A stretch of 64,000 nt of DNA from an uncultured Gemmatimonadales bacterium (GTDB lineage Bacteria; Gemmatimonadota; Gemmatimonadetes; Gemmatimonadales; GWC2-71-9). The notes below the pieces were generated by a model that was given only the letters and a program-made list of their open reading frames with translations, was not told the origin of the DNA and made no database searches. The translations under genes were made by a program, and so were the position numbers. Shown here one piece after another: positions 26,138 through 28,901 of the stretch. Position 1 is the first letter of the stretch, and each line of letters opens with the position of its first letter. The stretch covers positions 6,465 to 70,464 of the forward strand of contig CAWEMG010000037.1 of NCBI GenBank assembly GCA_963810165.1, written 5' to 3'.

Positions 26138-26562
26138 TCATGTGATGGGCGCCCTCACCGCGCGTCCCCACACGACGAACGCCGCCAGGCTCGCGAGGAC
26201 GAGCGGCATCGGCAGCGCGCCGAACTCTCCCGGCTGATGTGGAAGCCCGCGGCGGACAGCATTGCCAGCGCCAGACCGACGCCGGCCAGCGGCGTAAGCA
26301 TCGGCTTGACGCGGGTGGCAGCAGGAAGGATCAGACCGAGCCCGCCGAGGAATTCGGCGACACCGATGAAGCGCACGAGCGCCGCCGGAACCGCAGCCGG
26401 CCACCCGAAGGTTTCCACCAACACCGCGATCGGCTGGGTGGCCTTCGTCGTGCCGACCGCGAGGAACAGTGCCGCGAGCAGCCCCTGAACGACCCACAAC
26501 CCGACGTGGAGCGCCTTTGAGGGCCTCACGTCACCTCTGGCTTGGACGCTCGCGGTCATCAC
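26138..26562 (-). CDS. DoxX family membrane protein (frameshift near the 3' end)
   Basis: [42 protein letters not shown]. Confidence 0.88.
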
Positions 26563-28901
26563 TGCGTTCCTCCCGCTCCCGAACCGTGAGATTCGGTTTC
26601 ACTGTGGCCCTGCCCGATCGAGGCGGGGTGCTCGTGGGAGCCGTGGGAGCTAGCCTGGGGTGGGCCGTGGACAATGGTCTGGAGAGAGTCCAGAGTGGCC
26701 TGTCTCGCGGCGGCCTGGCTGGCGGTCAGGGTCTCCTGCTTGGGCGGCTTCTCGTAGCTGTCGTACACGTACCCCATCTGTGCGGTGCGGTTGGACGCGC
26801 TGACGGGCAGGTATACGTGTTTGCCGCTCTTGTCCCCGTACGCGAACTTTCGGTTGAGGTACTTGGGATCGGTTGGGTTCTCGTTGCCCAGCCGGTTCCA
26901 GCTTTCCCAGAGCCGGTCCATGTTGGCGTGGTGGAGATAGAAGAGCGGGTCACCTCCCACCGTGGAGAATTCCGCCATGTCGCCGCCGAGTGCGAAATGA
27001 GTGAAGAAGTGGGGGTTTTGGTCCATGCGGGGATTGAACCCGAGGTTGCCGTTCGCCGAGTCGATGTAAAATTTTTCGTTGAGGGCGCTCAGATTGATCC
27101 AGTTCATATAGAGCTTATCGATCGGTTCTCCCCCATTGACCCAGAACCAGCGAGTGCCATTGAACAGGGGGCTGCCCGGATCCCGGAACACGGCCGGAAC
27201 AATGAAATCGTCGTGGTTCCCGGTAACCGGGTTCCAGTAGGGAAGCGAGAAACTCTCGTCCTGCAGCACCTCGCGAATGACCCCCTCGAACTGGTGCAGC
27301 ATGAGCCGGTGCCAGGGCAGGAAGAACCATTGCTGAAAGTGTTCAGGGTCGGCGGGATCCTTGGCGTGTGACTGGCAGCCGTTCCACACCGCCCAAGCCG
27401 CTTCGCGGTACTCCGGTGGAAGTGAGTCTATGGCTTCCTTCTTACGGATCTGGGAGAATTCCCACAGGAACGCCGGGTAGCCCTTGATCCAATGGGTATT
27501 CCACCACCAGGTCCAGGAGCGGGTATCGTAGGACGGCAGCGTCTTCATGATCTCCACCGCCCGACCGTATTTCGCGAGCATTGCCTGGCCTTCGGCGCTG
27601 TTGACGTTGTAGCGGGTGTAGGGCTTCGTCGTACTCGCGGCAAGCGCCCCACCGCTGGTGGAGAGCGCCCCTCCGGTACCGAAAGGGGCGTCCCAGATGC
27701 GGAAGGAGACACTTTTCGCGCCACCGGGGGACATGCCCCCGGTGCGGATGGACAACTTCTTCGCTTCGCTGCCGGCAGGCGCCGCCTCCTCGTTCTTCGC
27801 AGCCTTCGCCGGAGGCGCTCCGAACTTCAGCTCCAGAACATCGTGGTTCGCCGTGTGGGTGTGGAGACTCGGATCCTGGAACACCAGCGCCCCGGCCGAC
27901 TGGATCATCCCGCTCACCAGGTGAAAGCGATCGCCGATCACCGCGCCCGCAACGCCGTGACGCGGCATCGGCATGGGAGGCAGCGTGAACCACGAATTGA
28001 TCGCCGGGTCGTACGCCTGGATGCCGTTAAACGCGCCGACCATACCGTTGGTTGTTATCTCACCGCCCGCCACATAGATCAGGCGCCCGTCCGTGCCCCA
28101 GGCCCCCCCGCTTCGGGCGTACGGCATCCGCTCTCTCGGAACACTCCAGCTGTCGTTCACGGGATTGTACTCCTCCACCACATCCGTATTCGTGGCGGTC
28201 AGGATGAATCCGTGGCCGGTGCGGCCGCCGATGATGTAGATCTTGCCGTTGACCGCGCCACCGAACGCGTGATTGCGCGCGACCGCCATCGGTGTGCGGC
28301 TCTCCCACTTGTTGGTGGCGGGATCGTACACGTCGTTGGTGGTGAGAACTCGAGCGGCTCCGAAGGCCGTGAAGAACGAGTCCTTGGACGCCGGCACGGT
28401 CGAGACCCCCCCGATCGCGTAAATCTTGCCGCCGACTTCGGCGGCGAACGCAGACCCGCGCCTGCTGGGCAGCGGCGCCAGCGACTTCCAGGAGTCGGCC
28501 GCCGGATCGTACTGCCAGACGTCGTCGATGGGCTGCCATGCGGCGCCCAGCGGGACCGCGGTGGTCGTGGGAGCGACGAACCCACCGATCACGTAAATCT
28601 TGTCGTTCACAACGGCCATGGCCGCATGGTGGGCCGGCCGGGGCATCGGCTGCTTCTTGGTCCATCTATCGGTCGCCGGATCGTATTCGTAGTTGCCGCC
28701 GGCCGCTTTGCCGCCGGCCCAGCCGCCCATCACGTACATTTTCCCCTTGACGGTGACGCCGTAGAGCTCCTCATCCGGCGCCGGGAACGGTGCCGCCTTC
28801 TTCCACGGTGATGTCGGCATCTGCGCCAGCGCGGCCGTGGCGAAACCCAGGCTGACCAGTAGGGAAAGGATCGCGGTTCTTCGTTGCAGCACTCTCGACA
28901 T
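26559..28901 (-). CDS. Secreted Kelch-repeat beta-propeller fused to a tyrosinase (type-3 dicopper) domain
   Basis: Signal peptide; about six Kelch repeats (YVMGG...YDPATDRW); CuA NTHW...CQSH...[12 protein letters not shown]; CuB NPHFFTH...[19 protein letters not shown]; His-rich tail. Confidence 0.88.

Follow-up and report, generated by a model that had tools for sequence, protein, structure and literature searches.

A predicted exported Kelch propeller-tyrosinase fusion in an uncultured Gemmatimonadales bacterium and its relatives in other phyla

Here we report the analysis of a gene that joins a Kelch beta-propeller to a tyrosinase domain in an uncultured Gemmatimonadales bacterium. The gene is located at 26559..28901 (minus strand) of a 64,000-nucleotide stretch of contig CAWEMG010000037.1 (assembly GCA_963810165.1, positions 6,465 to 70,464), which is the whole of the DNA analysed and is referred to below as the window. 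It begins with ATG and encodes 780 amino acids plus a stop codon, and the list of open reading frames together with Pfam searches describes it as one exported Kelch propeller/tyrosinase fusion. It lies within a tight cluster of four genes on the same strand, the other three encoding a DUF2490 protein, a DoxX_2 protein and a 317-residue barrel-like protein.

Domain architecture and copper site

The product starts with a signal peptide (residues 1-26, 28824..28901; like the other features of the gene, on the minus strand), whose hydrophobic core and cleavage-type site (ALA/Q) are kept across the family and which is followed by QMPTSPW. Residues ~33-357 (27831..28805) form a six-bladed Kelch beta-propeller, recognized by Kelch_1 (E 3e-41, 5 stretches) and overlapping Kelch families, modelled with a predicted local distance difference test score (pLDDT) of ~90, and matching the fold of Keap1 and KLHL17. 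A disordered linker rich in Ala, Gly, Ser, Lys and Pro (residues ~358-427, 27621..27830; pLDDT <50 in both structural models) contains no second signal peptide and leads into a type-3 copper tyrosinase/polyphenol oxidase (PPO) domain with a DWL-like end (residues ~428-722, 26736..27620; pLDDT 85-98). This domain matches PF00264 (E 1.3e-21; 78.4 bits, cut-off 22.6), with PPO1_DWL recognized only weakly (17.5 bits, below the cut-off of 20.8; E 0.0033). The protein ends with a conserved amphipathic helix (residues ~723-746, 26664..26735; helix 727-745 in both models) and a disordered His/Gly/Ser-rich tail (residues 747-780, 26562..26663; pLDDT <50). A sequence-only reading of the locus had described one gene with a signal peptide, about six Kelch blades, an Ala/Gly/Lys linker of ~65 residues and a type-3 copper domain that is complete, and the reading frame, Pfam and the models agree with that description. 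They show a product that is predicted to be an exported two-domain enzyme, consisting of a Keap1-type propeller, a disordered tether and a complete binuclear-copper phenol oxidase, either a tyrosinase or a catechol oxidase.

Two full-length structural models were used. The first, built on a shallow alignment (A1), is good for the propeller only, with the catalytic half at pLDDT <50. The second, built on a mixed alignment (A3) of 133 fused and non-fused sequences, has a mean pLDDT of 78.7 and a predicted template modelling score (pTM) of 0.61; the propeller (~33-357) and the catalytic domain (~428-745) are confident, and residues 361-423 and 749-780 are disordered. The propeller matches Keap1 6fmp with Z 34.3 (root-mean-square deviation 1.9 A over 258 residues), KLHL17 with Z 34.0 and YjhT/NanM with Z 32.0 at 20% identity. 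All of the best matches are six-bladed, and galactose oxidase, a copper radical oxidase with a seven-bladed propeller and a Tyr-Cys cofactor, is not among the matches listed. The fold is the same in Keap1/KLHL proteins and YjhT/NanM (Z 32-34, template modelling score ~0.8, identity 20-28%), of which the former are eukaryotic ubiquitin-ligase adaptors and the latter is a periplasmic sialic-acid mutarotase. Many homologs bear the Joint Genome Institute product name 'N-acetylneuraminic acid mutarotase', which we read as a generic Kelch match because the NCBIfam models for NanM/YjhT score far below their cut-offs (PRK14131, 63.2 vs 416 bits; TIGR03547, 51.4 vs 256); Pfam NANM is above its cut-off (64.6 vs 45) but overlaps the generic Kelch families. 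The catalytic half has the four-helix-bundle fold of tyrosinases, and its best match is HcTyr1 of Hahella sp. CCB MM4 (PDB 8B74; Z 31.7, root-mean-square deviation 2.2 A over 262 residues, 30% identity), followed by Ralstonia TYR 7xio (Z 26.4) and the Verrucomicrobium tyrosinase 8bbq (Z 25.7). From its low pLDDT and its variable length (23-86 residues, median 56.5, in 96 family members), the linker is likely to be a flexible tether. The pTM of 0.61 with both domains confident is weak model-based evidence against fixed packing, and a complex test of the propeller (27-360) against the tyrosinase domain (428-750) gave a score of 0.00, which counts neither for nor against docking.

The predicted CuA site (27309..27494) comprises H470 (HA1), C509, H512 (HA2), an insertion of ~10 residues and H531 (HA3), and the CuB site (26931..27011) comprises H631, H635 and H657, with F632, F633, F636 and F645 lining it. 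The position of H470 and the helix preceding it align with the HA1 region of the walnut, grape and sweet-potato PPOs. The C509-Q-S-H512 segment aligns with C76-Q-H78 of HcTyr1; after the insertion comes a helix with the FLPWHR motif, whose histidine is H531. The ligands of HcTyr1 are given as His43, His78 and His87, and His211, His215 and His238 (PMC11609597). The six histidines and C509 are invariant in all 96 fused members and in 95-97 of 97 non-fused relatives. The presence of all six expected ligands had been claimed from the letters, and the alignment to plant PPOs and HcTyr1 together with this invariance bears out every one. H521, which stands near the canonical spacing from HA3, was considered as the second CuA ligand and ruled out, being Gln in 58 of the 96 members.

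HcTyr1 has the same type-3 copper core, six-His layout and Cys just before HA2, and it matches the profile of the non-fused sister subfamily over its full length (E 1.7e-68). Plant PPOs and catechol oxidases (walnut 5CE9, grape 2P3X, sweet potato 1BT1, apple 6ELS) have in common with the window protein the helix before HA1, FLPWHR, the CuB motifs and the DWL-like segment. The oxidase half belongs to the HcTyr1/plant-PPO-like lineage. HcTyr1 has no Kelch, has a C-terminal LID with the plug Phe397 and keeps canonical HA2-HA3 spacing, whereas the window protein lacks a LID, is longer by one residue between the Cys and HA2, and has the insertion before HA3 and a Phe-rich pocket; the plant enzymes have a KFDV C-terminal shielding domain and no propeller.

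Since C509 is invariant and the family alignments contain no second invariant Cys as its partner, a Cys-His thioether is plausible, and a C509-H512 bond is possible. In plant PPOs the thioether Cys is placed after HA1. Speaking against the bond, C509 sits three residues ahead of HA2 and not two, and the homologous Cys76 of HcTyr1, which is two residues before HA2, forms no thioether in the copper-free crystal (PMC11609597).

The pocket of the fused clade differs from that of its nearest relatives at several positions. The residue after the first CuB histidine (HB1+1, position 632) is Phe in 36 of 36 fused sequences vs Gly in 89 of 97 non-fused ones; position 645 is Phe (36/36) vs Val or Ile (93/97), position 636 Phe (24/36) vs Val (61/97), and position 655 Tyr (36/36) vs Trp (89/97). 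These alignments show a putative pocket lined with extra phenylalanines relative to the nearest relatives. According to a rule that is disputed in the field, the residue beside the first CuB histidine (Asn vs Phe) governs monophenol hydroxylation. With Phe and not Asn at this position, we would expect the oxidation of diphenols to prevail over the hydroxylation of monophenols.

The C-terminus also differs. No more than ~58 residues follow the DWL-like segment of the window protein, and neither DUF7868 nor KFDV gave a Pfam match in it or in the representative of its closest fused cluster (P0121); DUF7868, a KFDV-like C-terminal domain, is present in 12 of the 15 scanned non-fused representatives. 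In its place, helix 727-745 has one conserved face formed by R733 (95 of 96 members), Y737 (76/96, Leu in the window), L740 (90/96), H741 (74/96, Gln in the window) and A744 (86/96). Histidine accounts for 8.8% of the last 35 residues vs 2.5% of the body, a 3.5-fold enrichment, and the tail has at least three histidines in 59 of 96 members. This comparison shows that the fused clade has lost an ancestral C-terminal lid, with the helix and the His-rich tail standing there instead. The loss of the lid, the helix with its tail, and the envelope gene cluster described below had all been missed in the sequence-only reading.

Distribution and origin of the fusion

A metagenome search returned 569 matches, and the architecture was read in the 120 best, nearly all of which are ~750 residues long; 117 of these 120 contain both domains. 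A survey in which each species was represented by one genome gave 321 stretches encoding a relative, from which 75 loci were retained, with a tyrosinase in 58 and a Kelch region directly before the tyrosinase in 53. Among the 53, propeller and tyrosinase share a single uninterrupted frame in 39, and frameshifts or stops interrupt the other 14, many of them from the MFD series of metagenome-assembled genomes, where we suspect indel errors. The window's exact DNA was found in none of the public sequencing runs (best share 0.11), and no run holding it as RNA was listed. Contigs of close relatives bridge the linker in three runs of different studies (X2 record 12, X9 record 28, X20 record 20); of these, X20 is labelled as possible RNA and is probably DNA. 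The linker had been singled out beforehand as the place where an indel might hide two separate genes, and the 39 single-frame homologs and the bridging contigs of the three runs answer that concern. The fusion is confirmed not to be an artefact. The other doubt raised at the outset was that the architecture might be already well represented and characterised. Its first part turned out to be true, with 117 of the 120 best metagenome proteins and 321 stretches, while the second did not, the family being uncharacterised, and the finding stands.

An N-terminal Kelch propeller had been stated not to be known from characterised bacterial tyrosinases. This agrees with what we found: a search of the full texts of papers outside subscription journals, supplements not included, retrieved no paper on a bacterial Kelch-tyrosinase, and the word Kelch does not occur in the HcTyr1 paper (PMC11609597).

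At 50% clustering, an exhaustive sequence search found one fused cluster, P0121, at 70% identity. Below it come proteins of ~480-520 residues with 32-53% identity, whose tyrosinase domain begins at about residue 30. These proteins, P0123 and P0124 among them, combine a twin-arginine translocation (Tat) signal with Tyrosinase, PPO1_DWL and DUF7868, and have the C-Q-x-H motif at HA2 and all ligands in common with the window protein; they have no propeller in 27 of 27 aligned sequences, and Gly at HB1+1 where the fused clade has Phe. The catalytic domains of these 27 non-fused relatives are 31-46% identical to that of the window.

A quick maximum-likelihood tree (midpoint root; support from the Shimodaira-Hasegawa-like approximate likelihood ratio test, SH-aLRT) placed all 40 fused rows in one clade with support 100 and a branch length of 0.88. 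The clade spans Gemmatimonadota, Acidobacteriota, Rokubacteria and Planctomycetota. Planctomycetota are basal, and the Gemmatimonadota sequences, that of the window among them, fall within Acidobacteriota (support 95) on short branches. In a sample of 151 Gemmatimonadota genomes the gene occurs in 2, one of which is the window's own genome. The other, from the same genus, has a match of 81% identity (G125:C3:880378-881385) that contains a single in-frame TGA in an open frame of 879 codons. The tree fits a single fusion event followed by transfer between phyla. The fused architecture is common among uncultured bacteria of soil; it appears to be a main tyrosinase type in uncultured Acidobacteriota and is patchy in Gemmatimonadota, Rokubacteria and Planctomycetota.

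Gene neighbourhood

The cluster opens with the DUF2490 gene (28944..29669, minus strand; PF10677, E 1.5e-14), which encodes a putative outer-membrane beta-barrel and ends 42 nucleotides before the start of the fusion gene. It is directly upstream of the fusion in 34 of the 53 Kelch-then-tyrosinase loci. DUF2490 has been catalogued among the putative porin families (TC 1.B.81), its function not being established (PMC4827864), and in a preprint it is presented as a barrel of the outer membrane with general secretory (Sec) signals. Downstream, the ATG of a small DoxX_2 membrane protein gene (26155..26562, minus strand; PF13564, E 1.6e-17) overlaps the TGA of the fusion (TGATG). This protein matches MauE as well (PF07291, E 1e-7; 32.7 bits vs a cut-off of 27), and DoxX_2 was found with hidden Markov models in 27 of the 75 loci. 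Two predicted products, P0050 (461 residues, no Kelch) and P0040 (649 residues), contain a tyrosinase and DoxX_2 together, and may be true fusions or may result from read-through or gene calling where the stop and start overlap.

The last gene of the cluster (25218..26171, minus strand) encodes a secreted 317-residue protein with no Pfam match of its own. Its 26%-identical homolog matches PF13557 (E 2.4e-4; 21.7 bits vs a cut-off of 22), in agreement with an Atlas lead, and the protein is probably a distant Phenol_MetA_deg-like outer-membrane barrel. It occurs near the fusion in 25 of the 53 loci. Upstream of the cluster, a gene at 30383..33508 (minus strand) encodes a 1041-residue sensor histidine kinase with Reg_prop, Y_Y_Y, HisKA_3 and HATPase_c (Pfam). 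Of the 53 loci, 11 have a homolog of this Reg_prop/Y_Y_Y kinase close to the fusion, both in Gemmatimonadales and, with 23-33% identity, in Acidobacteriota, and the kinase is a possible regulator of the cluster. No response regulator is adjacent to the kinase; the nearest, of the LuxR type, is at 38850-39485 on the plus strand. The cluster is flanked by envelope-biogenesis genes at 15246-24895, which encode a TamB-like protein (1339 residues), POTRA/Omp85 proteins and an Mla-type set (MlaE, MlaD/ABC and an auxiliary lipoprotein).

In 9 loci, mostly from Planctomycetota (L006, L008 at 5001-7748, L010, L011, L017, L021, L045, L047 and L048), the fusion reading frame continues into a third domain, a CxxC redoxin of the AhpC/TSA type in which the motif C-I-R/Q-C is conserved; in L051 and L055 the redoxin follows directly after the gene in another frame. 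The neighbours of the redoxin-fused loci include DoxX_2, DUF3237, nitroreductase, SMP-30-like and FAA-hydrolase/glyoxalase genes. A Kelch-only gene, ~70% identical to the window's propeller, precedes the fusion directly in tandem in L026, L042, L043, L046, L047 and L050. The Terriglobia loci L063-L065 and L073 contain arrays of three or four Kelch-only genes and no tyrosinase.

Possible roles of the fusion protein

The reading that we favour, and to which we give about an even chance of being right, is that of an envelope phenol/catechol oxidase in which the propeller is a tethered binding module and DoxX or redoxin proteins handle quinone/thiol chemistry. The enzyme would be periplasmic or exposed on the cell surface, and it would oxidize phenolic and catecholic compounds, abundant in soil, to o-quinones, and the two barrels could serve for substrate entry or product exit. 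The propeller would keep a substrate, a polymer or an envelope partner near the catalytic domain as a tethered module and not as a rigid lid. DoxX_2, together with the CxxC redoxin in Planctomycetota, may handle reactive quinones or the thiol damage resulting from them. Relatives of the oxidase are active enzymes: in HcTyr1, a characterised tyrosinase, self-cleavage of the LID with its Phe397 plug leads to ~10-fold higher activity (PMC11609597). An argument from MhqP as a DoxX-like quinone-resistance protein was rejected, since MhqP is a flavin azoreductase according to PMC12673573.

Several observations weigh against this interpretation. The export route is ambiguous between Tat and Sec: the window protein retains the twin arginine, as do its closest relatives, yet the pair occurs in just 37 of 96 fused members, and TAT_signal gave no Pfam match in the window protein; all 27 aligned non-fused relatives have a twin-arginine signal. 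The family assignment of the 317-residue protein falls below the Pfam cut-off. The neighbours vary by phylum, and since no DUF2490 gene was found upstream in loci from Planctomycetota and Rokubacteria, the enzyme cannot depend on it. In a promoter and terminator scan, the 4 terminator-like sites and the absence of any promoter-like site (0) did not exceed what shuffles give, so that the operon is suggested by gene spacing only. Finally, Cus-type metal efflux genes adjoin 15 of the 58 tyrosinase-bearing loci, all of the acidobacterial group, which hints at copper or redox stress and not at the use of phenols.

The last observation leads to an alternative that we regard as rather unlikely, namely a defence of the envelope against copper and redox stress. 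The fusion protein would be a CueO-type periplasmic oxidase and copper sink beside Cus efflux, DoxX and redoxins; by removing catechols it would prevent their reduction of Cu(II) to the toxic Cu(I), with the His-rich tail serving as a copper buffer. The CusB/CusA-like genes, which in L031 and L033 directly follow DoxX_2, the His-rich tail and the redoxin fused in 9 loci are consistent with this role. However, no Cus-like genes occur in the loci from Gemmatimonadales, Planctomycetota and Rokubacteria, and the open reading frames scanned across the 64-kb window include no copper-efflux or copper-resistance Pfam family.

It seems unlikely that the protein has a caddie or lid of its own, with either the propeller, docked on the active site, or the C-terminal helix together with the His tail shielding the enzyme, holding it latent or supplying its copper in cis. 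The appeal of this reading lies in the absence of a lid domain that the ancestors had, and in the conserved helix face followed by the His-rich tail. The model also aligns up to residue ~748, into the lid region of 8b74, 6hqj, 5m6b and 5zrd, which is a lead only, since the ranges are end points. Like the window protein, Streptomyces MelC2 has a lidless core, and its copper loading and export need a separate helper with a Tat signal, MelC1; the window protein scores 43 bits against the MelC2 model, whose cut-off is 450. The MelC1 caddie has a plug Tyr and copper-shuttling His residues, to which Y737, H741 and the His tail bear a resemblance. MelC1 (PF06236) had no match in the 63.6%-complete genome, and the control genomes gave no match either, hence this search is uninformative. 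On the other side, the candidate plug residue, Y737 in most members, is L737 in the window and is not conserved in the window's own clade, a long linker of variable length is ill-suited to a fixed propeller lid, and the pTM does not indicate confident packing between the domains.

We consider it improbable that the propeller captures an envelope or secreted protein whose Tyr would be converted to 3,4-dihydroxyphenylalanine or its quinone, to serve in cross-linking, in adhesion or in the formation of a cofactor. In its favour, the propeller is closest in fold to the peptide-binding Kelch domains of the Keap1 type, Kelch-only paralogs stand in tandem with the fusion, including the six loci named above, and the DoxX_2 neighbour scores above the MauE cut-off. 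The MauE family is needed for the maturation of a protein-derived quinone cofactor. Against this, the likeness to Keap1 is silent on the ligand, with the sugar binder YjhT/NanM scoring almost equally; no conserved candidate substrate protein was found beside the gene; and the Phe-rich pocket, judging from its residues, looks narrow and not open to a protein side chain. We find it just as hard to credit an oxygen-driven periplasmic quinone-thiol relay, in which the propeller would hold a protein or catechol, the o-quinone would oxidize the redoxin and the DoxX/MauE-like protein for DsbB-independent thiol oxidation or quinone-cofactor maturation, and the helix and His tail would be an in-cis caddie.

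The ligand of the propeller could reveal the true soil substrate of the enzyme. Bacterial tyrosinases have been proposed to control the breakdown of the phenolics that lock carbon in peat and soil, according to the abstracts of PMC9454253 and PMC8375020. The fusion can be viewed as a natural experiment in the regulation of type-3 copper enzymes, in which the lid has gone, the pocket is filled with Phe, the protein has gained a propeller, a helix and a His tail and, in one branch, a redoxin as well. It is also a possible lid-free, self-targeting oxidase for biocatalysis.

Elsewhere, the window is unusually rich in two-component genes. At 54357-60247 (plus strand), a 1072-residue HEAT-repeat protein is encoded ahead of an 893-residue protein with receiver and HisKA domains, and an HD-GYP-like response regulator comes before the two. 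At 3376-5187 (minus strand), the longest open reading frame matches both Omp85 and HATPase_c, a pairing that may reflect two genes or a wrong frame in high-GC DNA.

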